Shown here in pieces: positions 2,140 to 31,504 of a DNA stretch of 64,000 nt (the first letter of the stretch is position 1; every line of letters begins with the position of its first letter). The notes under the pieces are model-generated. The model saw only the letters and a list, made by a program, of their open reading frames with translations. It made no database searches and was not told the origin of the DNA. The stretch is from Escherichia coli. Lineage in GTDB: Bacteria; Pseudomonadota; Gammaproteobacteria; Enterobacterales; Enterobacteriaceae. The stretch is taken from NCBI RefSeq assembly GCF_001677475.2, contig NZ_CP015229.1, one strand, 5' to 3'. The position numbers were made by a program, and so were the translations under genes.

Positions 2140-2216
2140 CTCAGTCCGCCTGGCGCCGATTATTCTGGCCGGTTTTGTAACCTGAGTGTCATTTACATGA
2201 TCCAACAGGAAATGGC

Positions 2217-3716
2217 GTGACGCTCAATACTTCTCAGGTCAGTTACTATATGACTCAGCGTAAGAAAGGTATAACTCAGCATATCTCGGCCATGAAGGCT
2301 GGTATCTCAGTCCGTTCTGGTCGTCGGATCGAAAAAGGAGAGTGGGCAAAAAACAGTGTTCGGCACTGGCGCACACGCAAAGATCCTCTGGAAGCTGTGT
2401 GGGACAGCATGCTTGTTCCTCTGTTGAAAGAGAGGCCGGCTCTGACACCAACAACTCTACTGGAGATGCTACAGGATAAATATCCCGGCCAGTACCCCAA
2501 CAGCCTTCGAAGAACAATGCAACGGCGGGTTCGCGAATGGAAACTACAGTATGGTACAGAGCAGGAGGTCATGTTCCGCCAGCAACATCAGCCCGGCCTG
2601 CGAGGCCTGTCGGACTTTACTGAACTGAAAGGTGTAGTTGTCACCATCGCCGGTAAGTTGTTGGCGCATAAGTTGTATCACTTCCGTCTGGAATGGAGCC
2701 ACTGGAGCTGGATGCGGGTTGTTCTGGGTGGTGAGAGCTTCTCTGCTCTGGCTGAAGGCCTGCAGGAAGCCCTCGGACAACTGGGCGGAGTGCCGGTAGA
2801 ACATAAAACGGACAGCCTGAGGGCAGCATGGAAACAACAGGGCGAAGATGGACGCCGCGAGCTGACTGAGCGTTATGCTACTCTCTGTCAGCACTACGGA
2901 ATGCAGGGCGTACACAATAATGCCGGTCGGGGCCACGAAAATGGCTCGGTTGAAAGTGCCCACGGACATCTGAAAAGGCGTATCTGTCAGGCGCTGATAC
3001 TGCGGGGCAGTAACGACTTCAGCACCATAGAAGAATATCAGGCCTTCATCACTCAGCAGGTTATGCGGCACAACCGTAACAATCAGGATCTGGTCAAGGA
3101 AGAACGTCTTCATCTGAAACCGCTGCCGCTTCGTCGCAGTGCTGACTATGATGAGCTGACTGTGAGGGTTAGTCGCAGCAGTACCATCAATGTGAAGCAC
3201 GTCGTCTACAGCGTACCTTCCCGGCTTGTAGGTCAACTGTTACGGGTCAGGTTATGGGACGATCGTCTGAGCTGTTACGTTGGCAGCAGCGAGGTCATGA
3301 GCTGCCCTCGCGTCAGACCAGAAAAAGGGAAGACGCGGGCCCGTCGTATCGACTTCCGACATGTGATCGACAGTCTGGCAAAAAAGCCCGGTGCGTTCTG
3401 CCATGCAACGCTGAGAAATGACATCCTGCCGGACGATGAATGGCGGAGGCTGTGGCGTCGCTTATGTAATCATCTGGAGCCCGATATGGCAGGAAGGCTG
3501 ATGGTACATGCCCTGAAACTGGCTGCAGGATACGACGATATCTCAGTCGTGGCAAAAGGTATGGAGCAGATGCTGAATACCCCGGGAAACGTGGATCTGC
3601 ACCGGCTGATGCGCTTCCTGGGTATAAAAGAAAAGGCGTTGCCGGTAGTCAATGTGATACAGCATAACCTGAGCAGTTATGAGCAACTACTGCGTGGCAA
3701 GGGAGGTTCGCAGTGA
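2217..3716 (+). CDS. istA: IS21-family transposase IstA
   Basis: 499-aa ORF immediately upstream of, and overlapping, an IstB ATPase gene; size and arrangement fit IS21-family IstA. True start may be internal. Confidence 0.7.
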   Translation: MTLNTSQVSYYMTQRKKGITQHISAMKAGISVRSGRRIEKGEWAKNSVRHWRTRKDPLEAVWDSMLVPLLKERPALTPTTLLEMLQDKYPGQYPNSLRRTMQRRVREWKLQYGTEQEVMFRQQHQPGLRGLSDFTELKGVVVTIAGKLLAHKLYHFRLEWSHWSWMRVVLGGESFSALAEGLQEALGQLGGVPVEHKTDSLRAAWKQQGEDGRRELTERYATLCQHYGMQGVHNNAGRGHENGSVESAHGHLKRRICQALILRGSNDFSTIEEYQAFITQQVMRHNRNNQDLVKEERLHLKPLPLRRSADYDELTVRVSRSSTINVKHVVYSVPSRLVGQLLRVRLWDDRLSCYVGSSEVMSCPRVRPEKGKTRARRIDFRHVIDSLAKKPGAFCHATLRNDILPDDEWRRLWRRLCNHLEPDMAGRLMVHALKLAAGYDDISVVAKGMEQMLNTPGNVDLHRLMRFLGIKEKALPVVNVIQHNLSSYEQLLRGKGGSQ

Positions 3717-4468
3717 GCAATATCCATCACCTTGAACATAGCCTGCGTAAACTACGCCTGACACGAGTTGGAGCTGAATGGCACGCTCTGGAAAAACGAG
3801 CGCTGGCAGAAGGCTGGACACCATCGCGCTATCTTCTGACGCTATGCAATGAAGAACTCCTGTGGCGCGAGAGTGAAAAACTGCGTCGTTATAAAAAGGA
3901 GGCCCGGTTGCCAGTTGCCAAAACGCTGAGCGAATACGACTTCAGTCAGGTGCCGGAACTGAATGGAGCTCAGTTCCGGCAACTCTGTGAAACGACAGAC
4001 TGGGTTGATGCAGGAGAAAACGTTCTGCTGTTCGGAGCCAGCGGGTTGGGGAAAAGCCATCTGGCGGCAGCGATCGTGGATGGCGTAGTAGGTCAGGGCT
4101 ACCGGGCCCGGTTCTACAGCGCAGGAGAGCTGTTGCAGGAACTACGTAAAGCCAGAGCTCAGTTGAAACTGAATGAGCTGCTACTGAAACTGGATCGCTA
4201 CCGGGTGATAGTGGTGGATGATCTTGGCTATGTCAAACGCGATAGTGCCGAAACGGGTGTGCTGTTCGAGTTAATAGCGCATCGCTATGAACGTGGGAGC
4301 CTGGTGATAACCAGTAACCATCCGTTCAGCATGTGGGGCAGCATCTTCGTGGATGAGACTATGGCGGTGGCTGCGGCAGACAGGCTGCTCCATCACGGAT
4401 ATATGTTCGAACTGAAAGGGGAAAGCTACAGGAAAAAGACAGCGAAGGCAGTAACAAGCGCGACTTGA
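3713..4468 (+). CDS. istB: IS21-family helper ATPase IstB
   Basis: 251 aa with Walker A GASGLGKSHLA and Walker B VIVVDDLGY; start overlaps istA stop. Confidence 0.85.
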   Translation: MSNIHHLEHSLRKLRLTRVGAEWHALEKRALAEGWTPSRYLLTLCNEELLWRESEKLRRYKKEARLPVAKTLSEYDFSQVPELNGAQFRQLCETTDWVDAGENVLLFGASGLGKSHLAAAIVDGVVGQGYRARFYSAGELLQELRKARAQLKLNELLLKLDRYRVIVVDDLGYVKRDSAETGVLFELIAHRYERGSLVITSNHPFSMWGSIFVDETMAVAAADRLLHHGYMFELKGESYRKKTAKAVTSAT

Positions 4469-4621
4469 TGTCGCCCTGAAGGGTGCGGCCAGTATAGTTG
4501 GCGCGAGTCGGCAAAACTAGTTGACGTCTAATACCTGCAGTCTTCACAGGCGTTACAAAATTTACAACGTCAACTGGGATTAATAGCCGGAGGTGAGGCT
4601 GGAAAACGGGCTGCAACGGCA

Positions 4622-5482
4622 GTGGGTCTCCGTTGCAGTGCAGATACTCATCTTCGCAGGGTTATCAATACCCCAGAGACGAAACTGTCAGGCTCATCCC
4701 ATGTCGGTATTGATGAGTGGGCGTGGCATCGGGGCCACCGTTACGGTACGTTAATCGTCAATCTTGATACTCACCGTCCCCTCGTCCTGCTTCCCGGCCG
4801 TGATCAGCGTACGCTGGCGACCTGGTTCAGAAAATATCCGGAAATACAGGTTGTCTCACGTGATCGCAGTGGAGTCTATACGACAACAGCACGTGTAGGT
4901 GCACCTCAGGCCAGACAGGTGGCCGATCGATGGCACCTGCTAAAAAATATTGGCGATGCGCCTGAACAAATGATGTACAGACATATACCTCAGATACGTC
5001 TTGTTGCCAGTGAGTTGTCACCAAAGAAATCACCTGATCCAGAACCATCTGTGCCTGCAGCATCGCTCCGTCGTCCGGAACACCTAAAACAGCAAACCCG
5101 CAAAAAACGGCATCAGCATTGGACAGAGGTTATGGCCCTGCATAACAAGGGATGTAGTTTCAGGGAAATATCCCGTATTACAGGCCTGTCGCGTGTGACA
5201 GTCAGTCGCTGGGTACGTTCAGGAACATTCCCTGAAATGTCAACCCGACCTCCAAAGCGAGGGCTTCTGGAACCATGGCGGGAGTGGTTAAAAGAGCAAC
5301 GAGAAAGTGGTAATTATAACGCCAGCCAGATATGGCGGGAAATGGTGGCCCGGGAGTTTACAGGCAGTGAAACCATTGTCAGGGATGCTGTTGCCAAATG
5401 GCGTAAAGGCTGGATCCCACCGGTTACTACTGCCGTCAGACTTCCTTCAGTGTCCCGGGTAAGCCGCTGGTTGATGCCCTAG
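4622..5482 (+). pseudogene. ISL3-family transposase, catalytic-core fragment (continuation of the 1810-2139 fragment)
   Basis: HVGIDEWAWHRGHRYGTLIVNLDTHRPLVLLPGRDQRTL...VVSRDRSGVY...ADRWHLLKN fits the ISL3 DDE-domain pattern as recalled; further C-terminal fragment in another frame at 5531-5683. Confidence 0.6.
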
Positions 5483-5583
5483 AGAATAATCAGGGATGAA
5501 GAAAATTATGCTTCCTGATTTATTAGTCTGATGTGTGAAAAAGAACCTGAGCTGAAAATAGCGCAGCAACTGGCACTCGAGTT

Positions 5584-8845
<3,262 letters not shown>

Positions 8846-8903
8846 ATTTGTGTAATTGCCTGATTTTGATATGTTCAATCCAGCATCAAATGAAGGTTAA
8901 TTT

Positions 8904-10101
8904 ATGGCCGAAAAACAGTTACAGACTCTGGCTAACGAACTGGCCAAAAACCTCAAAACCCCTGAAGACCTCAGTCAGTTTGATCGGCTGCTGAAGAAGC
9001 TCAGCGTTGAAGCCGCTCTCAATGCAGAATCTTGGGTATGAGAAAAATCAGTCCAGACCAGGAGCTAACTCCCGCAACGGTTATTCCACAAAGACCGTTA
9101 TCACAAGCGACGGTCCACTGGAACTGCGTACTCCGCGCGATCGTGAAGCTACCTTCGAACCACAACTGGTAAAGAAAAATCAGACCCGTATTACCGGGAT
9201 GGATAACCAGATCCTCTCGTTGTATGCCAAAGGGATGACCACCCGTGAGATAGCTGCTGCGTTCAAAGAACTGTATGACGCAGATGTTTCACCGGCACTG
9301 ATATCAAAGGTCACCGATGCCGTGATGGAGCAGGTTGTAGAATGGCAAAACCGACCACTGGATGCTGTTTACCCCATTGTTTATCTTGACTGTATCGTCC
9401 TGAAAGTTCGGCAGGACAGTCGCGTCATCAACAAATCGGTGTTCCTGGCACTGGGCATCAATATCGAAGGTCAGAAAGAACTGCCAGGTATGTGGCTGGC
9501 CGAAAATGAAGGGGAGAAGTTCTGGCTCAATGTGCTGACTGAACTGAAAAACCGCGGTCTGAACGATATCCTCATCGCCTGTGTGGATGGCCTGAAAGGC
9601 TTCCCGGATGCCATCAACACAGTATATCCGAAGGCCTGCATCCAGTTATGCATCGTGCATATGGTGCGCAACAGCCTGCGCTTCGTGTCATGGAAGGACT
9701 ACAAAGCCGTCACTCGCGACCTGAAAGCGATTTATCAGGCTCCCACGGAAGAGGCAGGTCAGCAGGCACTGGAAGCGTTCGCTGCGGCCTGGGACAGTCG
9801 CTATCCTCAGATAAGCCGAAGCTGGCAGGCTAACTGGCCGAATCTTGCCACGTTCTTCGCTTATCCAACGGACATCCGCAAAGTGATCTATACGACGAAT
9901 GCCATCGAGTCGCTAAACAGCGTGATCCGCCATGCGATCAAAAAGCGTAAAGTGTTCCCGACAGACGACTCGGTGAAAAAAGTGGTGTGGCTGGCAATCC
10001 AGTCTGCGTCCCAGAAATGGACGATGCCGTTGAAGGACTGGCGAATGGCAATGAGCCGCTTTATTATCGAGTTCGGTGACCGCCTGGACGGTCACTTCTG
10101 A
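8904..10101 (+). pseudogene. IS256-family (mutator-type) transposase, frameshifted near 9030
   Basis: N-terminus MAEKQLQTLANELAKNLKTPEDLSQFDRLLKKLSVEAALNAE in one frame stops near 9040; remainder (GYSTKTVITSDGPLELRTPRDREATFEPQLVKKNQTRITGMDNQILSLYAKGMTTREI...) continues in the 9007-10101 frame. Confidence 0.65.
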
Positions 10102-18873: not shown

Positions 18874-18956
18874 TTTCAGACATATATTATCTCCGTGAAT
18901 CCCCCGCCACCTTTCCGGTGTGCGGGGTTTTGTCTTTTTTCACCGGGAATACATGT

Positions 18957-19829
18957 ATGAATCCGTCTGATGCCATTGAGGCAATTGAAAAACCACTTTC
19001 TTCCCTGCCTTACTCGCTTTCCCGTCACATCCTGGAACATCTGCGCAAACTCACCAGTCACGAACCCGTGATTGGCATTATGGGTAAAAGCGGGGCCGGT
19101 AAATCCTCACTCTGTAATGCGCTGTTTCAGGGGGAGGTCACACCGGTCAGTGATGTTCACGCCGGCACCCGGGAAGTGAAGCGTTTCCGTCTGAGTGGAC
19201 ACGGTCACAGCATGGTTATCACTGACCTGCCCGGGGTGGGCGAGAGCCGGGAGCGGGATGCAGAGTATGAAGCTCTGTACCGTGACATTCTGCCCGAACT
19301 GGACCTGGTACTGTGGCTGATTAAAACCGATGACCGTGCCCTGTCTGTGGATGAGTATTTCTGGCGACACATCCTGCACCGGGGACATCAGCAGGTGCTG
19401 TTTGTGGTGACGCAGGCCGATAAAACGGAGCCCTGCCATGAATGGGATATGGCCGGTATTCAGCCTTCTCCCGCACAGGCACAGAACATTCGCGAAAAAA
19501 CGGAGGCGGTATTCCGTCTGTTCCGGCCCGTACATCCGGTTGTGGCCGTATCGGCCCGCACCGGCTGGGAACTGGATACGCTGGTCAGTGCGCTCATGAC
19601 AGCGCTTCCCGACCATGCCGCCAGTCCCCTGATGACCCGCCTGCAGGACGAGCTGCGCACGGAATCTGTCCGCGCTCAGGCCCGTGAACAGTTTACCGGT
19701 GCGGTGGACCGGATATTTGACACGGCGGAGAGCGTCTGTATTGCCTCTGTTGCATGCACGGTTCTGCGTGCCGTCCGTGACACGGTGGTCTCTGTTGCCC
19801 GCGCTGTATGGAACTGGATTTTCTTCTGA
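18957..19829 (+). CDS. YeeP/YkfA/YfjP-family small GTPase
   Basis: P-loop GIMGKSGAGKSS, switch-like DLPGVGE and G4-like region; sits immediately upstream of the Ag43 gene as in CP4-44-type modules. Confidence 0.7.
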   Translation: MNPSDAIEAIEKPLSSLPYSLSRHILEHLRKLTSHEPVIGIMGKSGAGKSSLCNALFQGEVTPVSDVHAGTREVKRFRLSGHGHSMVITDLPGVGESRERDAEYEALYRDILPELDLVLWLIKTDDRALSVDEYFWRHILHRGHQQVLFVVTQADKTEPCHEWDMAGIQPSPAQAQNIREKTEAVFRLFRPVHPVVAVSARTGWELDTLVSALMTALPDHAASPLMTRLQDELRTESVRAQAREQFTGAVDRIFDTAESVCIASVACTVLRAVRDTVVSVARAVWNWIFF

Positions 19830-19944
19830 ACACTCTGCCAGGGGAAATGCCTGATTACATTGCGTTAACCAACTGAAAACATGACACAAACACCTCATAC
19901 CCCTCCTGTTTCTCTTGCGTGGCCGCCTTGTTATTAATAGAATA

Positions 19945-19988
19945 AAACGATCGATAAAACAGGTATCGATCGTTACTATCGATCGTTT
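19945..19988. promoter_or_regulatory. Ag43 phase-variation switch (three GATC sites, OxyR-binding region)
   Basis: GATC at 19949-19952, 19968-19971 and 19981-19984 within AACGATCGATAAAACAGGTATCGATCGTTACTATCGATCG, about 220 bp upstream of the Ag43 start codon. Confidence 0.7.
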
Positions 19989-20201
19989 ATAGTGGTTAAT
20001 GGCCTGCGAAAAGGCAGCTGAATCTCTTCATCATGCAGAACGGAATTGCACACAACGGACTGATACTTCTCTGGCGGATGAGAGAGGGGAAGCATTTATG
20101 TCCGGGAAAAACCACTTTATCTGACCATGCTGTTTTGTACCTGCCGGTATCCACATTTGTGGGTACCGGCTTTTTTATTCACCCTCTGTAAGGAAAAGCT
20201 G

Positions 20202-23048
20202 ATGAAACGACATCTGAACACCAGCTACAGGCTGGTATGGAATCACATTACAGGCACCCTGGTGGTGGCTTCCGAACTGGCACGCTCACGGGGAAAAGGC
20301 GCCGGTGTGGCGGTTGCTCTGTCTCTTGCTGCTGTCACGTCAGTCCCGGCACTGGCTGCTGACACGGTTGTACAGGCGGGAGAAACCGTGAACGGCGGAA
20401 CACTGACAAATCATGACAACCAGATTGTCCTCGGTACGGCCAACGGAATGACCATCAGTACCGGTCTGGAGTATGGGCCGGATAACGAGGCCAATACCGG
20501 CGGGCAATGGATACAAAATGGCGGTATCGCCAACAACACTACTGTCACCGGTGGTGGTCTTCAGAGAGTGAATGCCGGAGGAAGCGTTTCAGACACGGTT
20601 ATCAGTGCCGGAGGCGGACAGAGCCTTCAGGGGCAGGCAGTGAACACCACTCTGAACGGCGGTGAGCAGTGGGTACATGAAGGCGGGATTGCAACGGGTA
20701 CCGTCATTAATGAGAAGGGCTGGCAGGCCGTCAAATCCGGCGCAATGGCAACCGACACGGTTGTGAATACCGGCGCGGAAGGGGGACCGGATGCAGAAAA
20801 TGGTGATACCGGGCAGTTTGTTCGCGGAAATGCCGTACGTACCACCATCAATAAAAATGGTCGTCAGATTGTGGCTGCTGAAGGAACGGCAAATACCACT
20901 GTGGTTTATGCCGGCGGCGACCAGACTGTACATGGTCACGCACTGGATACCACGCTGAATGGGGGGTACCTGTATGTGCACAACGGCGGTACGGCGTCTG
21001 GCACTGTTGTAAACAGTGACGGCTGGCAGATTATCAAGGAAGGTGGTCTGGCGGATTTCACCACCGTTAACCAGAAAGGCAAACTGCAGGTGAACGCCGG
21101 TGGTACAGCCACGAATGTCACCCTGACGCAGGGAGGCGCACTGGTCACCAGTACGGCGGCAACCGTCACCGGCAGCAACCGTCTGGGCAATTTCACTGTG
21201 GAAAACGGTAATGCTGACGGTGTTGTTCTGGAGTCCGGTGGTCGCCTGGATGTACTGGAGGGCCATTCAGCGCAGAAAACATTGGTGGATGACGGCGCTA
21301 TCCTGGCAGTGTCTGCCGGTGGTAAGGCAACAGATGTCACCATGACATCCGGTGGTGCCCTGATTGCAGACAGTGGTGCCACTGTTGAGGGGACCAATGC
21401 CAGCGGTAAGTTCAGTATTGATGGCATATCCGGTCAGGCCAGCGGCCTGCTGCTGGAAAATGGCGGCAGCTTTACGGTTAATGCCGGGGGACAGGCTGGC
21501 AACACCACTGTCGGACATCGTGGAACACTGACGCTGGCTGCCGGGGGAAGTCTGAGTGGAAGAACACAGCTCAGTAAAGGCGCCAGTATGGTACTGAATG
21601 GTGATGTGGTCAGTACCGGCGATATTGTTAACGCAGGAGAGATTCACTTTGATAATCAGACGACACAGGATGCCGTACTGAGCCGTGCTGTTGCAAAAGG
21701 CGACTCCCCGGTAACGTTCCATAAACTGACCACCAGTAACCTCACCGGTCAGGGTGGCACCATCAATATGCGTGTTCGCCTTGATGGCAGCAATGCCTCT
21801 GACCAGCTGGTGATTAATGGTGGTCAGGCAACCGGCAAAACCTGGCTTGCGTTTACAAATGTCGGAAACAGTAACCTCGGGGTGGCAACCTCCGGACAGG
21901 GTATCCGGGTTGTGGATGCACAGAATGGTGCCACCACAGAAGAAGGTGCGTTTGCCCTGAGTCGCCCGCTTCAGGCCGGCGCCTTTAACTACACCCTGAA
22001 CCGTGACAGCGATGAAGACTGGTACCTGCGCAGTGAAAATGCTTATCGTGCTGAAGTCCCCCTGTATGCCTCCATGCTGACACAGGCAATGGACTATGAC
22101 CGGATTCTGGCAGGCTCCCGCAGCCATCAGACTGGTGTAAGCGGTGAAAATAACAGCGTCCGTCTCAGCATTCAGGGCGGTCATCTCTGTCACGATAACA
22201 ACGGCGGTATTGCCCGTGGAGCCACGCCGGAAAGCAGCGGCAGCTATGGCTTCGTCCGTCTGGAGGGTGACCTGCTCAGAACAGAGGTTGCCGGTATGTC
22301 TCTGACGACAGGGGTGTATGGTGCTGCAGGCCATTCTTCCGTTGATGTTAAGGATGATGACGGCTCCCGTGCCGGCACGGTCCGGGATGATGCCGACAGT
22401 CTGGGCGGATACCTGAATCTGGTACACACGTCCTCCGGCCTGTGGGCTGACATTGTGGCACAGGGAACCCGCCACAGCATGAAAGCGTCATCGGACAATA
22501 ACGACTTCCGCGCCCGGGGCTGGGGCTGGCTGGGCTCACTGGAAACTGGTCTGCCCTTCAGTATCACTGACAACCTGATGCTGGAGCCACAACTGCAGTA
22601 CACCTGGCAGGGGCTCTCCCTGGATGACGGCCAGGATAACGCCGGTTATGTGAAGTTCGGGCATGGCAGTGCACAACATGTGCGTGCCGGCTTCCGTCTG
22701 GGCAGCCACAACGATATGACCTTTGGCGAAGGCACCTCATCCCGTGACACTCTGCGCGACAGTGCAAAACACCGTGTGAGTGAACTGCCGGTGAACTGGT
22801 GGGTACAGCCTTCTGTTATCCGCACTTTCAGCTCCCGGGGTGACATGAGCATGGGTACAGCCGCAGCCGGCAGTAACATGACGTTCTCACCCTCACAGAA
22901 TGGCACATCACTGGACCTGCAGGCCGGACTGGAAGCCCGTGTCCGGGAAAATATCACCCTGGGCGTTCAGGCCGGTTATGCCCACAGTGTCAGCGGCAAC
23001 AGCGCTGAAGGCTATAACGGTCAGGCCACGCTGAATGTGACCTTCTGA
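20202..23048 (+). CDS. flu: Antigen 43 self-associating autotransporter
   Basis: MKRHLNTSYRLVWNHITGTLVVASELARSRGKGAGVAVALSLAAVTSVPALAADTVV N-terminus, repetitive beta-helical passenger, C-terminal beta-barrel ending ...GYNGQATLNVTF; 948 aa from the ATG at 20202. Confidence 0.9.
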   Translation: MKRHLNTSYRLVWNHITGTLVVASELARSRGKGAGVAVALSLAAVTSVPALAADTVVQAGETVNGGTLTNHDNQIVLGTANGMTISTGLEYGPDNEANTGGQWIQNGGIANNTTVTGGGLQRVNAGGSVSDTVISAGGGQSLQGQAVNTTLNGGEQWVHEGGIATGTVINEKGWQAVKSGAMATDTVVNTGAEGGPDAENGDTGQFVRGNAVRTTINKNGRQIVAAEGTANTTVVYAGGDQTVHGHALDTTLNGGYLYVHNGGTASGTVVNSDGWQIIKEGGLADFTTVNQKGKLQVNAGGTATNVTLTQGGALVTSTAATVTGSNRLGNFTVENGNADGVVLESGGRLDVLEGHSAQKTLVDDGAILAVSAGGKATDVTMTSGGALIADSGATVEGTNASGKFSIDGISGQASGLLLENGGSFTVNAGGQAGNTTVGHRGTLTLAAGGSLSGRTQLSKGASMVLNGDVVSTGDIVNAGEIHFDNQTTQDAVLSRAVAKGDSPVTFHKLTTSNLTGQGGTINMRVRLDGSNASDQLVINGGQATGKTWLAFTNVGNSNLGVATSGQGIRVVDAQNGATTEEGAFALSRPLQAGAFNYTLNRDSDEDWYLRSENAYRAEVPLYASMLTQAMDYDRILAGSRSHQTGVSGENNSVRLSIQGGHLCHDNNGGIARGATPESSGSYGFVRLEGDLLRTEVAGMSLTTGVYGAAGHSSVDVKDDDGSRAGTVRDDADSLGGYLNLVHTSSGLWADIVAQGTRHSMKASSDNNDFRARGWGWLGSLETGLPFSITDNLMLEPQLQYTWQGLSLDDGQDNAGYVKFGHGSAQHVRAGFRLGSHNDMTFGEGTSSRDTLRDSAKHRVSELPVNWWVQPSVIRTFSSRGDMSMGTAAAGSNMTFSPSQNGTSLDLQAGLEARVRENITLGVQAGYAHSVSGNSAEGYNGQATLNVTF

Positions 23049-23168
23049 CAGAACCATCGCCTCTTTGTGGTCCCGGTCATCATGATCGGGACCCGGACCG
23101 GCGCAACGGATATTCAACGCCACATTCGCTGGCATTAACAATAACATGATATTCATCACGGAGTGACT

Positions 23169-25685
23169 ATGTTACAGATAGTCGGCGCGCTGATCCTGCT
23201 GATAGCAGGATTTGCCATTCTTCGCCTTTTGTTCAGAGCATTAATCAGCACGGCTTCTGTGCTGGCAGGGCTTATATTGCTGTGTCTGTTCGGCCCGGCC
23301 TTACTGGCTGGCTATATCACCGAACGCATAACACGGTTGTTCCATATTCGCTGGCTGGCAGGCGTATTTCTGACGATTGCCGGAATGATCATCAGCTTCA
23401 TGTGGGGACTTGATGGTAAACATATCGCGCTGGAGGCTCACACCTTTGACTCTGTGAAATTTATTCTGACCACCGCTCTCGCCGGTGGTCTGCTGGCTGT
23501 TCCCCTGCAGATCAAAAACATTCAGCAGAACGGGATCACACCAGAAGATATCAGCAAGGAAATTAACGGGTATTACTGCTGTTTTTATACTGCCTTTTTC
23601 CTTATGGCATGTTCTGCATGCGCACCATTGATCGCGTTACAGTACGATATTTCACCGTCACTGATGTGGTGGGGCGGGTTGTTGTACTGGCTGGCTGCAT
23701 TAGTGACGCTGCTATGGGCGGCCAGCCAAATCCAGGCGCTGAAAAAACTGACCTGTGCCATCAGCCAGACACTGGAAGAACAACCGGTGCTCAACAGTAA
23801 ATCGTGGCTGACCAGTTTGCAAAACGATTACAGCCTTCCTGACTCACTGACGGAGCGCATCTGGCTGACGCTCATTTCTCAACGGATTTCCCGGGGAGAG
23901 CTGAGGGAATTTGAACTGGCAGACGGAAACTGGTTACTGAACAATGCCTGGTATGAAAGAAACATGGCAGGTTTTAACGAACAGTTGAAAGAGAACCTGT
24001 CATTCACACCTGATGAACTGAAAACGCTCTTCCGGAACCGCCTGAATTTATCACCGGAAGCGAATGACGATTTTCTCGATCGTTGCCTGGACGGCGGTGA
24101 CTGGTATCCCTTTTCAGAAGGTCGCCGTTTTGTATCATTCCATCACGTGGATGAGCTTCGTATCTGTGCCTCCTGCGGGCTGACAGAAGTACATCATGCC
24201 CCGGAAAATCATAAGCCGGATCCGGAATGGTACTGCTCCTCTCTTTGTCGCGAAACAGAAACACTGTGTCAGGAAATTTATGAACGCCCTTACAACTGTT
24301 TTATTTCCGATGCAACGGCGAATGGTCTGATTCTCATGAAACTGCCGGAAACCTGGAGTACAAATGAGAAAATGTTTGCTTCCGGAGGGCAGGGACATGG
24401 GTTTGCCGCTGAACGGGGAAACCATATTGTCGACAGAGTCCGTCTGAAAAACGCACGGATCCTCGGTGATAATAATGCCAGAAATGGAGCAGACAGACTG
24501 GTCAGCGGAACAGAAATCCAGACGAAATATTGTTCAACTGCAGCCCGTAGCGTCGGTGCGGCATTCGACGGACAAAACGGACAGTATCGTTACATGGGAA
24601 ATAATGGCCCCATGCAACTGGAAGTCCCCCGTGATCAGTATGCCGGCGCTGTTGAAACCATGAGGAATAAGATCCGCGAAGGTAAAGTACCCGGTGTAAC
24701 CGATCCCGCAGAAGCGTCCCGGCTGATTCGTCGGGGACATCTGACTTATACTCAGGCCCGTAATATCACCCGGTTCGGGACCATCGAATCGGTCACTTAT
24801 GATATTGCCGAGGGTTCGGTTGTCAGTCTGGCGGCCGGAGGGATCAGTTTTGCACTGACGGCATCGGTCTTCTGGCTCAGCACCAGCGATCGCGATGCAG
24901 CCCTGCAGACAGCTGCTGTCCAGGCAGGAAAAACCTTCACCCGCACACTGGCTGTCTACATCACAACCCAGCAACTCCACCGGCTCAGTGTTGTTCAGGG
25001 TATGCTGAAGCACATTGATTTTTCGACTGCCAGCCCGACTGTCCGACTGGCTCTTCAGAAGGGGACCGGTGCAGGAAATATCAGTGCCCTGAACAAAGTA
25101 ATGAAGGGTACGCTGGTGACATCTCTGGCACTGGTAGCTGTCACAACCGGCCCTGACATGATCAAAATGTTGCGGGGACGGATCTCCGGTGCGCAGTTCA
25201 TCAGGAATCTTGCCGTGGCATCTTCCGGTGTGGCAGGTGGTGCTGTCGGGTCAGTGGCGGGCGGAATACTGTTCAGTCCACTGGGACCATTTGGTGCACT
25301 GACAGGGCGTGTGGTTGGCGGTGTTCTGGGGGGAATGATTGCCTCCGCTGTATCAGGAAAAATTGCCGGAGCGCTGGTTGAAGAAGATCGCGTCAAAATT
25401 CTGGCAATGATTCAGGAGCAGGTGACATGGCTTGCCGGCAGTTTCCTGCTGACCGGACATGAGATTGAAAATCTGAACGAGAATCTGGCCCGTGTTATCG
25501 ATCAGAATGCTCTGGAGATCATTTTCGCCGCCGGTATACAACAACGGGCCGCGACCAATATGTTAATCAAACCACTGGTGGTCAGTATCATCAGGCAACG
25601 CCCCGTCATGGAATATGATGCATCCCATCTCGGCAATATGGTTAACCGACTGGAAGAAGCATTACCCCCGGAGTTACCGGCATAA
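23169..25685 (+). CDS. YeeR-like inner-membrane protein (uncharacterised)
   Basis: About 838 aa; several N-terminal hydrophobic helices, central Cys cluster CASCGLTEVHH...YCSSLC, Gly-rich C-terminal helices (GVAGGAVGSVAGGILF...VVGGVLGGMIASAVSG); position right after flu as for yeeR. Confidence 0.5.
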   Translation: MLQIVGALILLIAGFAILRLLFRALISTASVLAGLILLCLFGPALLAGYITERITRLFHIRWLAGVFLTIAGMIISFMWGLDGKHIALEAHTFDSVKFILTTALAGGLLAVPLQIKNIQQNGITPEDISKEINGYYCCFYTAFFLMACSACAPLIALQYDISPSLMWWGGLLYWLAALVTLLWAASQIQALKKLTCAISQTLEEQPVLNSKSWLTSLQNDYSLPDSLTERIWLTLISQRISRGELREFELADGNWLLNNAWYERNMAGFNEQLKENLSFTPDELKTLFRNRLNLSPEANDDFLDRCLDGGDWYPFSEGRRFVSFHHVDELRICASCGLTEVHHAPENHKPDPEWYCSSLCRETETLCQEIYERPYNCFISDATANGLILMKLPETWSTNEKMFASGGQGHGFAAERGNHIVDRVRLKNARILGDNNARNGADRLVSGTEIQTKYCSTAARSVGAAFDGQNGQYRYMGNNGPMQLEVPRDQYAGAVETMRNKIREGKVPGVTDPAEASRLIRRGHLTYTQARNITRFGTIESVTYDIAEGSVVSLAAGGISFALTASVFWLSTSDRDAALQTAAVQAGKTFTRTLAVYITTQQLHRLSVVQGMLKHIDFSTASPTVRLALQKGTGAGNISALNKVMKGTLVTSLALVAVTTGPDMIKMLRGRISGAQFIRNLAVASSGVAGGAVGSVAGGILFSPLGPFGALTGRVVGGVLGGMIASAVSGKIAGALVEEDRVKILAMIQEQVTWLAGSFLLTGHEIENLNENLARVIDQNALEIIFAAGIQQRAATNMLIKPLVVSIIRQRPVMEYDASHLGNMVNRLEEALPPELPA

Positions 25686-25760: not shown

Positions 25761-26216
25761 ATGATTCACCTGTTCAAAACCTGCATGATTACCGCCTTCA
25801 TTCTGGGGTTAACGTGGTCTGCCCCACTCCGGGCACAGGATCAACGTTACATCAGTATACGCAATACAGATACGATATGGCTCCCGGGAAATATTTGTGC
25901 TTACCAGTTCCGGCTGGATAATGGCGGAAACGATGAAGGATTTGGCCCCCTCACCATCACTCTGCAACTCAAAGACAAATATGGTCAGACGCTGGTGACC
26001 AGAAAAATGGAAACGGAAGCTTTTGGTGACAGTAATGCCACGCGAACCACAGACGCATTTCTGGAAACGGAGTGCGTGGAAAATATCGCCACAACCGAAA
26101 TCATTAAAGCAACTGAAGAAAGTAACGGCCATCGTGTCAGTCTGCCGTTATCGGTTTTCGATCCCCAGGACTACCATCCACTGCTAATTACCGTTTCCGG
26201 AAAAAACGTTAACTGA
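25761..26216 (+). CDS. Secreted hypothetical protein
   Basis: 151 aa with signal-peptide-like MIHLFKTCMITAFILGLTWSAPLRA; RBS AGAGAGG upstream. Confidence 0.45.
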   Translation: MIHLFKTCMITAFILGLTWSAPLRAQDQRYISIRNTDTIWLPGNICAYQFRLDNGGNDEGFGPLTITLQLKDKYGQTLVTRKMETEAFGDSNATRTTDAFLETECVENIATTEIIKATEESNGHRVSLPLSVFDPQDYHPLLITVSGKNVN

Positions 26217-31446: not shown

Positions 31447-31468
31447 TTCGATTCCGAGTCCGGCACCA
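31447..31468 (+). repeat. Remnant of tRNA-Phe 3' end (T-arm, acceptor stem, CCA): island attR-type direct repeat
   Basis: TTCGATTCCGAGTCCGGCACCA matches the 3' end of E. coli tRNA-Phe except for one missing G in the acceptor stem (from memory); no upstream D or anticodon arm, so not a complete tRNA. Confidence 0.6.
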
Positions 31469-31482
31469 CTAATTCTTAAGAA

Positions 31483-31504
31483 CCCGCCCACAAGGCGGGT
31501 TTTT
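31483..31504 (+). terminator. Rho-independent terminator
   Basis: CCCGCC-cacaa-GGCGGG followed by TTTTT, immediately after the tRNA-derived repeat. Confidence 0.55.

Follow-up and report, generated by a model that had tools for sequence, protein, structure and literature searches.

Autotransporters of the Ag43 family fall into two subfamilies of different size, SF-I and SF-II, whose EJ, BL and AC subdomains are inherited together (PMC6668479, PMC10058404). The BL subdomain comprises 143 amino acids in type BL1 versus 90 in type BL2 (PMC10058404), and the bottom arm of the passenger carries seven rungs in the long form versus four in the short form (PMC8993888). Network analyses derive the classes of the family from shuffling of subdomains and distinguish two EJ-BL-AC modules, both ancient (PMC10058404). 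The short form has been described previously as Cah, as subfamily II, and as classes C2 and C4 (2019 scheme) or C2, C4, C5 and C6 (2023 scheme), and crystal structures followed in 2022. As cited in PMC6668479 (its reference 26), Cah was first characterised in EHEC; the RefSeq family name is 'Ag43/Cah'.

A member of this family is encoded in the stretch of Escherichia coli DNA analysed here (64,000 nucleotides, hereafter the window):

20202 to 23048, plus strand: agn43/flu/cah coding sequence, 948 amino acids plus stop, identified by NF033177, its Pfam architecture and an exact protein on record

A single uninterrupted frame runs from the ATG at 20202 to the stop codon at 23046-23048 (948 codons plus stop). 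The mechanically called open reading frame starts farther upstream, at an ATG at position 20127 (973 amino acids). We place the start at 20202 because the ESPR signal peptide begins there, with MKRHLNT, and because RefSeq annotates the same 2847-bp coding sequence in other genomes. The protein scores 1970.5 bits against the NCBIfam Ag43/Cah equivalog model NF033177 (cutoff 1200), with residues 1-948 aligned to profile positions 1-948 of 948, and its Pfam domains reproduce the complete T5aSS modular order: ESPR (PF13018, residues 6-52), four copies of PF16168 (AIDA), AC_1 (PF18883, residues 488-599) and Autotransporter (PF03797, residues 675-924). This gene is almost certainly an intact, natural, phase-variable self-associating autotransporter Ag43 (flu/agn43/cah) of subfamily II, class C4 (2019 scheme), which is shorter than the K-12 protein through its EJ2-BL2-AC module.

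The subdomains of the protein, numbered by precursor residue, are arranged as follows:

20202 to 20357, plus strand: extended signal peptide, residues 1-52; the mature UTI89 passenger begins with ADTVVQ, which corresponds to residue 53
20358 to 21122, plus strand: SL, the stem of the L and self-association surface, residues 53-307 (255 amino acids), 98.0% identical to the UTI89 class C4 SL
21123 to 21377, plus strand: EJ, the elbow, type 2, residues 308-392 (85 amino acids), 96.5% identical to the UTI89 EJ
21378 to 21647, plus strand: BL, the bottom of the L, type 2, a short four-rung arm, residues 393-482 (90 amino acids), 96.7% identical to the UTI89 BL
21648 to 21998, plus strand: flexible loop and autochaperone, residues 483-599
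21999 to 23045, plus strand: linker helix and beta-barrel translocator, residues 600-948

The UTI89 alpha-domain crystallised as 7KO9 aligns gaplessly with residues 52-613 (1132 bits), and by this identity the passenger is predicted to form an L-shaped three-stranded beta-helix. In 7KO9, the helix and the AC are joined by an 18-residue disordered loop. The EJ of the window allele contains the conserved VVLESGGRLDVL rung (PMC6668479).

UTI89 Ag43 (c1139; PDB 7KO9; SF-II C4) has the same SL 255, EJ 85 and BL 90 layout, and 419 of its 430 passenger residues (97.4%) are identical to those of the window protein. The 7KO9 construct covers the same residues, 53-613, within the family model of 948 amino acids, and the autochaperone and disordered linker loop region is also shared. 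The 11 passenger changes relative to UTI89 are T206F, Y208R, D210N, Q257L, D267G, W358Q, G366A, T367I, L431Q, S433G and R482H, and two more, P489Q and A492V, fall in the helix-AC loop (residues 486-503); this comparison covers the passenger and that loop. Cah/Ag43 of EHEC O157:H7 EDL933 (z1211; PDB 7KOH; SF-II C2) shares the short EJ2-BL2-AC module and the translocator, but its stem is of type SL2, and its match is correspondingly weaker (945 bits versus 1132 for 7KO9), with the drop in identity located in the stem. AIDA-I and TibA display the same T5aSS self-associating design and AIDA-type strand-loop-strand repeats, yet they stand outside the Ag43 family, as evident by weak partial matches to the AIDA-I model (171 bits, cutoff 1200) and to the TibA structure 4Q1Q (119 bits).

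The features described above place the allele, by sequence, in subfamily II, class C4 (SL1-EJ2-BL2, Ageorges et al. 2019), and in SF-II of the 2023 scheme as well. Its 430-residue passenger (residues 53-482) is collinear with the UTI89 entry, which the supplementary table of Ageorges et al. 2019 lists as subfamily II, C4. The stem is of the SL1 type, with 88% amino acid identity to the SL1 of K-12. The C4 label is that of the 2019 scheme; the six-class scheme of Ageorges et al. 2023 divides these alleles by SL1 subtype, such that C4 carries SL1b, C5 carries SL1c and C6 carries SL1a. The EJ1-BL1-AC(E) module of subfamily I, the K-12/CFT073 type of ~1039 amino acids, with its 143-residue BL1 and seven-rung arm, is absent, and K-12 residues ~470-602 have no counterpart in the window protein. 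The K-12 BL yields a partial match of 33 bits to 7KO9, compared with 291 bits, at 100% identity, to 4KH3, the seven-rung structure that is identical to K-12 residues 399-551.

K-12 MG1655 Flu (b2000; SF-I C1) belongs to the same family and has the same architecture, but it carries the EJ1-BL1-AC(E) module, whereas the window allele is without that seven-rung arm. An earlier note, made from the window sequence, had put this flu copy at about 948 amino acids against about 1039 for K-12, and both figures are accurate: the frame holds 948 codons and MG1655 flu translates to 1039 amino acids, a gap of 91 residues. Under three gap regimes, the net difference is confined to K-12 residues ~470-602. 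Only this envelope is robust, given that the precise boundaries depend on the gap penalty and resolve either to 41 plus 51 amino acids or to a gap of ~106 minus 13 amino acids. Approximately 22 of the 91 residues lie past the end of the K-12 alpha-domain, in the junction to the autochaperone. The note's proposal that the proteins differ in passenger beta-helix repeat number thus holds as regards the beta-helix, with four versus seven bottom rungs, and fails as regards repeat number, because there are no tandem repeats and the module itself is divergent.

Nor is 948 amino acids an unusual length for the family. The curated NF033177 model is itself 948 positions long, and the short form is commoner than the K-12 long form among complete E. 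coli genomes, with the short module in 2972 of 5426 and the K-12 module in 2400 of 5426. The 1039-amino-acid Flu of K-12 is not the species norm, and the length of an Ag43 allele reflects which of the two ancient EJ-BL-AC modules the gene carries.

Three explanations for the short length can be weighed against one another. It could be an artefact or a lesion, through a frameshift, a premature stop or a collapse of beta-helix rungs during assembly, and such a collapse is conceivable in principle for a passenger built of degenerate rungs of ~19-23 amino acids, in a gene that holds short dispersed direct repeats (18-48 nt, 70-83% identity). We consider this explanation to be practically excluded. 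Nothing interrupts the frame between the ESPR and the conserved LNVTF at the C-terminus, both ends are collinear with K-12, the protein matches the curated model end to end, and the UTI89 protein of the same length has a crystal structure. TRF detected no tandem repeat array in the gene. Furthermore, databases already contain the identical protein (e.g. ANO90853.1), which occurs on no fewer than 24 independent contigs drawn from different assemblies and belongs to a cluster of 26,437 members, and each of the top 30 listed full-length matches, all of them complete genomes, has the same 2847-bp coding sequence annotated. Among complete RefSeq E. coli genomes, no DNA match over the full length exceeds 97.9% identity. 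The allele is therefore a natural one, as the note had supposed, and it is an already catalogued, ordinary short-class Ag43.

A second possibility, that a long allele of the K-12 type recently lost ~4-5 rungs through an in-frame deletion, which would constitute true variation in repeat number, is somewhat less remote but still very improbable. The net difference does fall mainly in a single region, and opening one gap of ~106 amino acids gives an alignment score close to that obtained with several gaps. However, a recent deletion would leave flanks that resemble K-12, and the regions flanking the gap are instead divergent over ~270 codons. Nucleotide identity to K-12 is 89% in SL (88% at the amino acid level, gapless), 67% in EJ, 55% in BL and 62% in the loop and autochaperone segment, before it returns to 94% in the translocator (95% at the amino acid level, collinear). 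This mosaic profile rules out a simple loss of rungs from a K-12-like gene. In addition, the EJ2 and BL2 types common to classes C2 and C4, and in the 2023 scheme also to C5 and C6, match the short module with 96-97% identity, and the published network analyses noted above trace the classes to shuffled subdomains. The evidence from the sequence thus points to the third explanation, in which the short length derives from an alternative, divergent EJ2-BL2-AC module, with a four-rung bottom arm and a junction from helix to autochaperone unlike that of K-12, rather than from loss of repeats.

Upstream of the gene, the following elements are present:

19949 to 19984, plus strand: Dam/OxyR switch region of agn43, with GATC sites at 19949, 19968 and 19981 (-253, -234 and -221)
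19947 to 20183, plus strand: agn43 leader/IsrC (IS102) RNA region, Rfam RF00124
20143 to 20177, plus strand: terminator-like leader hairpin, a 12-bp stem with a U-run behind it, located 25 nt ahead of the start codon

The cluster of three GATC sites, which we take to be the phase-variation switch of agn43 and which is a candidate for this function here, compares with ~1.4 sites expected from composition across the whole 372-bp upstream region. Direct counting of coordinates gives a spacing of 19 and 13 bp, as in K-12 and in two other short alleles. A MAFFT DNA alignment had suggested a rearranged switch with a 13-bp insertion between the GATC sites, which the coordinate counts reveal to be an artefact. 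The RF00124 match covers the full model (1-206) and, at 74.8 bits (E=8.9e-12), exceeds the gathering score of 46, and isrC is annotated at the equivalent location just upstream of flu in K-12, which shares the leader hairpin. A 74-nt stretch carrying the hairpin has a minimum free energy of -26.1 kcal/mol (z = -3.9; 0 of 200 shuffled sequences fold as well), and the hairpin is near-invariant across the window, K-12 and H1.

The earlier note had also tied allele length to the strength of autoaggregation, a link that published assays contradict. Aggregation is fast for the short EDL933 and the long Ag43a alleles and slow for the short UTI89 and the long Ag43b alleles, and these differences map to residues of the stem interface, which is an extensive double interface in EDL933 (fast) and a single interface in the UTI89 type (slow) (PMC8993888). 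Length is no predictor of aggregation strength, because short and long alleles occur in both the fast and the slow groups, and length alone is unfit to serve as a proxy. The UTI89 self-association interface, validated by mutation, comprises nine residues, all of which the window SL retains, and from their conservation we infer that the window allele probably mediates homotypic autoaggregation. By near-identity to characterised proteins, the protein would be exported by the Sec pathway through its ESPR signal peptide, and the beta-barrel would then insert, followed by autochaperone-assisted folding of the passenger at the cell surface. Head-to-tail 'Velcro' self-association through the SL interface would lead to clumping and biofilm with slow, UTI89-like kinetics, and expression would switch ON or OFF according to whether the three GATC sites are methylated by Dam or bound by OxyR.

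Some features of the window allele might alter this behavior. Relative to 12 other alleles of 948 amino acids, six residues are private to it, including Q257L, G366A, T367I, G663C and G732D; G663C introduces the sole cysteine of the protein, and G732D lies in the translocator. Ag43 proteins are cleaved after translocation into alpha and beta chains that remain associated non-covalently, and the K-12 alpha/beta junction NGAID/PTN (residues 549-554) lies within the segment that is missing from the window allele. All subfamily II alleles, including the one in the window, lack this AID/PTN junction. The window allele may be processed at a different site, plausibly the 18-residue loop at residues 486-503, or the private changes in the elbow (G366A, T367I) or the barrel (G663C, G732D) may shift bend angle, secretion or aggregation away from those of UTI89 Ag43, but we regard such departures as unlikely. 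A more severe consequence, in which the private translocator or elbow changes, or a switch locked OFF, leave an intact gene impaired in function or silent in this lineage, seems less probable again. Two glycine replacements give it some credence, one by cysteine where the barrel region begins and one by aspartate inside the barrel, since glycine residues can be important in the strands and turns of a barrel. Against impairment, several independent isolates carry the same unchanged allele, neither the frame nor the leader nor the set of three canonically spaced GATC sites is disrupted, the stem interface is retained in full, and the window gene sequence bears no sign of decay.

The gene sits in a yeeP-flu-yeeR-...-cbtA module of a pheV-type genomic island, with these neighboring features:

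18918 to 19829, plus strand: YeeP-like GTPase gene directly upstream of the gene, PF01926 MMR_HSR1
23163 to 25685, plus strand: YeeR-like gene of 840 amino acids directly downstream, PF27347 YeeR_C (precomputed for the same gene in L004)
31447 to 31468, plus strand: putative tRNA-Phe (pheV) 3'-end remnant of 22 bp at the right boundary of the island, TTCGATTCCGAGTCCGGCACCA, read directly

K-12 flu has the same yeeP-flu-yeeR...cbtA neighborhood, but it resides in the cryptic prophage CP4-44, where yeeR occupies the position of the YeeR-like gene. Other genomes carry the YeeP-like gene in the same position under the annotation 'GTPase family protein'. In an annotation of the window, the gene can be described as an intact Ag43 of class C4, phase-variable and UTI89-like, carried on a pheV-type island. 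No intact tRNA was found within the window, and a pattern search for the pheV 3' end that allowed mismatches returned no match because the remnant has a one-base deletion. On direct reading the remnant is visible at 31447 to 31468, and it is probably the pheV 3' end; a terminator hairpin comes next, and then gspM.

The flu/agn43/cah gene of the window encodes an intact Ag43, a self-associating autotransporter. Its frame runs uninterrupted from the ATG at 20202 to a stop codon at 23046-23048 and specifies 948 residues, and translation of K-12 MG1655 flu (b2000, from NC_000913.3) gives 1039 aa, so both lengths claimed in the earlier note are correct. Aligned to K-12 Flu, the protein is collinear from residue 1 through the last (...LNVTF) and carries the full ESPR / AIDA (four copies) / AC_1 / Autotransporter architecture. 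A mechanically called ORF starts 25 codons further 5′, at ATG 20127, yielding a spurious 973-aa product. This start was rejected because the extension (20127-20201) overlaps a conserved leader hairpin, the ESPR signal peptide starts at MKRHLNT, and the protein annotated in other genomes lacks the extension. Three minus-strand ORFs inside the gene (402 aa, 21267-22475; 225 aa, 20589-21266; 163 aa, 20936-21427) are probably a by-product of G+C-rich, Gly/Thr/Asn-biased repeat coding.

The features upstream of and including the coding region are as follows.

19949, 19968 and 19981: GATC sites, spaced by 19 and 13 bp
19947-20183: IS102/IsrC RNA (Rfam RF00124), full match, 74.8 bits (gathering score 46)
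20143-20177: leader hairpin of 12 bp with a U-run, almost invariant and of exceptional thermodynamic stability (z = -3.9)
20202-23048 (+): Ag43 coding sequence

We take the GATC sites, leader RNA and hairpin to be the Dam/OxyR phase switch and leader of agn43; their presence indicates that the gene is probably under normal control. The RF00124 match corresponds to the isrC annotation upstream of flu in K-12. A first multiple alignment suggested a rearranged GATC switch, but this was ruled out, as the spacing is identical to that of K-12 and of two other short alleles.

Under MAFFT and under each of three Needleman-Wunsch gap regimes, the window and K-12 proteins align without gaps up to residue 403 and again from K-12 residue 620 (window residue 529) onward. 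All of the net length difference is confined to K-12 residues ~470-602, within which its placement is not robust (41 plus 51 aa, or ~106 aa partly compensated by 13 inserted residues). This envelope contains the alpha/beta junction of K-12, ...NGAID|PTN... (549-554), and ...NGAID is the exact end of the alpha-domain construct in the Ag43a structure 4KH3. In published terms, the window passenger comprises 430 aa (aa 53-482) versus 499 aa in K-12; this accounts for 69 residues, and the other 22 of the 91 fall in the stretch from the K-12 cleavage point to the autochaperone.

An artefactual origin of the shorter gene was rejected. Besides the collinearity with K-12 and the complete domain set, the protein scores 1970.5 bits (cutoff 1200) against the curated NCBIfam equivalog NF033177 (‘Ag43/Cah family autotransporter adhesin’), its residues 1-948 covering all 948 profile positions. 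The corresponding coding sequence, also of 2847 bp, is annotated by RefSeq in other genomes, and the identical protein is already recorded (ANO90853.1, EFI6953288.1 and others, named Ag43/Cah, Escherichia coli) and carried by at least 24 contigs. Tandem Repeats Finder reported no tandem repeats in 19800-23200. The repeats in the gene are short, degenerate and dispersed, which makes array collapse or slippage implausible as an origin. A recent deletion from a K-12-like gene should have left K-12-like flanks, yet the flanks diverge. Identity to K-12 falls sharply at ~residue 330 and recovers at ~residue 575-605, leaving the elbow, bottom and autochaperone as the most divergent modules.

Identity of the window allele to K-12 by module (nucleotide; amino acid)
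Signal peptide: 0.86; 0.83
SL (stem): 0.89; 0.88
EJ (elbow): 0.67; 0.69
BL (bottom): 0.55; 0.51
AC (autochaperone): 0.62; 0.61
Linker and barrel: 0.94; 0.95

Because the gap flanks are not K-12-like, the shortness of the allele is best described as a module swap rather than repeat loss. The profile matches published accounts, in which Ag43 classes are ascribed to subdomain shuffling and EJ, BL and AC types are invariably co-inherited (PMC6668479, PMC10058404). Subfamily I (classes C1 and C3) has a passenger of ~500 aa with EJ1-BL1 (BL1, 143 aa), and subfamily II (C2, C4 and later C5 and C6) one of ~430 aa with EJ2-BL2 (BL2, 90 aa) (PMC6668479, PMC10058404).

The closest solved structure is 7KO9 (1132 bits, residues 52-613, gap-free), the UTI89 alpha-domain (PMC8993888, Table 1). 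The UTI89 passenger, whose SL, EJ and BL sequences are given explicitly in a 2019 supplementary table, belongs to subfamily II, class C4, and is 430 aa long (PMC6668479). The window allele differs from it at 11 of 430 positions (identity of 98.0% in SL, 96.5% in EJ and 96.7% in BL). The alpha-domains of UTI89 and of EDL933, a Cah-type short allele, are 69 aa shorter than those of Ag43a and Ag43b, and their C-terminal beta-helix therefore has four rungs rather than seven (Vo et al., PMC8993888). Over residues 399-551, K-12 shows 100% identity to the seven-rung portion of 4KH3 and only a partial, 33-bit match to 7KO9. The earlier presumption that beta-helix repeat number underlies the difference therefore holds structurally, in that the bottom arm has four rungs versus seven; given the divergence of EJ, BL and AC, a change in repeat number is rejected as its origin. 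The gene is a natural shorter allele, real, correctly measured and ordinary, a member of an already catalogued and structurally characterised Ag43 class.

Nor is the length unusual. Two probes were run against 5426 complete E. coli genomes: one of 408 nt, taken from the window BL2/AC segment, hit 2972 of them (4052 places), and one of 630 nt, taken from the K-12 BL1 segment, hit 2400 (3072 places). By these counts ~57% of copies carry the short module, in line with a total of 55.9% for the subfamily II classes of Ageorges 2023 (PMC10058404), and the K-12 length is the minority state. The 90%-identity cluster holding the window protein has 26,437 members, and among those listed most are 948 aa.

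The suggestion that length alters aggregation strength finds no support. In published assays (sedimentation, microscopy and biofilm rings), one short and one long allele aggregate fast (EDL933 and Ag43a, respectively), and one of each slowly (UTI89 and Ag43b) (PMC8993888). Mutagenesis traces these kinetic differences to stem residues that form hydrogen bonds: UTI89 has one interface of 13 bonds, and the fast variants have double interfaces (PMC8993888). Length is therefore no predictor of strength. All nine UTI89 interface residues (G13, G30, T32, N60, D79, T80, T98, N100 and N137; mature numbering, from precursor aa 53) are unchanged in the window allele, for which we would predict slow, UTI89-like aggregation from sequence. 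Two translocator substitutions, G663C (22188-22190) and G732D (22395-22397), are absent from 12 other 948-aa alleles, and K-12 has Gly at both equivalent positions; G663C creates the sole cysteine of the protein. Elbow G366A/T367I and stem Q257L are likewise private within this small set. Several assemblies share the exact protein despite these private substitutions.

The Ag43 neighbourhood is the usual yeeP-like GTPase / flu / yeeR-like / IrmA / DUF932 / antirestriction / RadC / YeeU-CbtA module. The YeeR-like gene 3′ of Ag43 (23163-25685) encodes 840 aa, compared with 510 aa for K-12 YeeR; profile scans matched no Pfam or NCBIfam domains in it, but its homologue has a precomputed PF27347 YeeR_C assignment. 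The IrmA-family gene follows at 25761-26216. A 22-bp tRNA-Phe 3′-end remnant, TTCGATTCCGAGTCCGGCACCA, lies at 31447-31468. Next comes a terminator hairpin rich in G+C, immediately left of gspM, the two features falling within 31447-31503. The remnant is presumably the pheV 3′ end minus one G. It looks like the attR-type right edge of a pheV-integrated island extending left past the window start; no intact tRNA was found within the 64-kb window. The chromosomal backbone at 25001-64000 diverges to an unusual degree: compared with the best match among the 5426 complete E. coli genomes, identity is only ~94% in the sslE/T2SS-beta (gsp) region and 97.6% in the glc region. Either the source belongs to a divergent Escherichia lineage that complete RefSeq genomes do not include, or it carries divergent sslE/gsp alleles. 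The left 10 kb is IS-rich, with a dense cluster at 2200-10100 (two opposed IS21-type istA/istB pairs, an ISL3-family fragment, IS3-family pieces and an IS256/Mutator-family transposase) that points to heavy rearrangement in the left part of the island.
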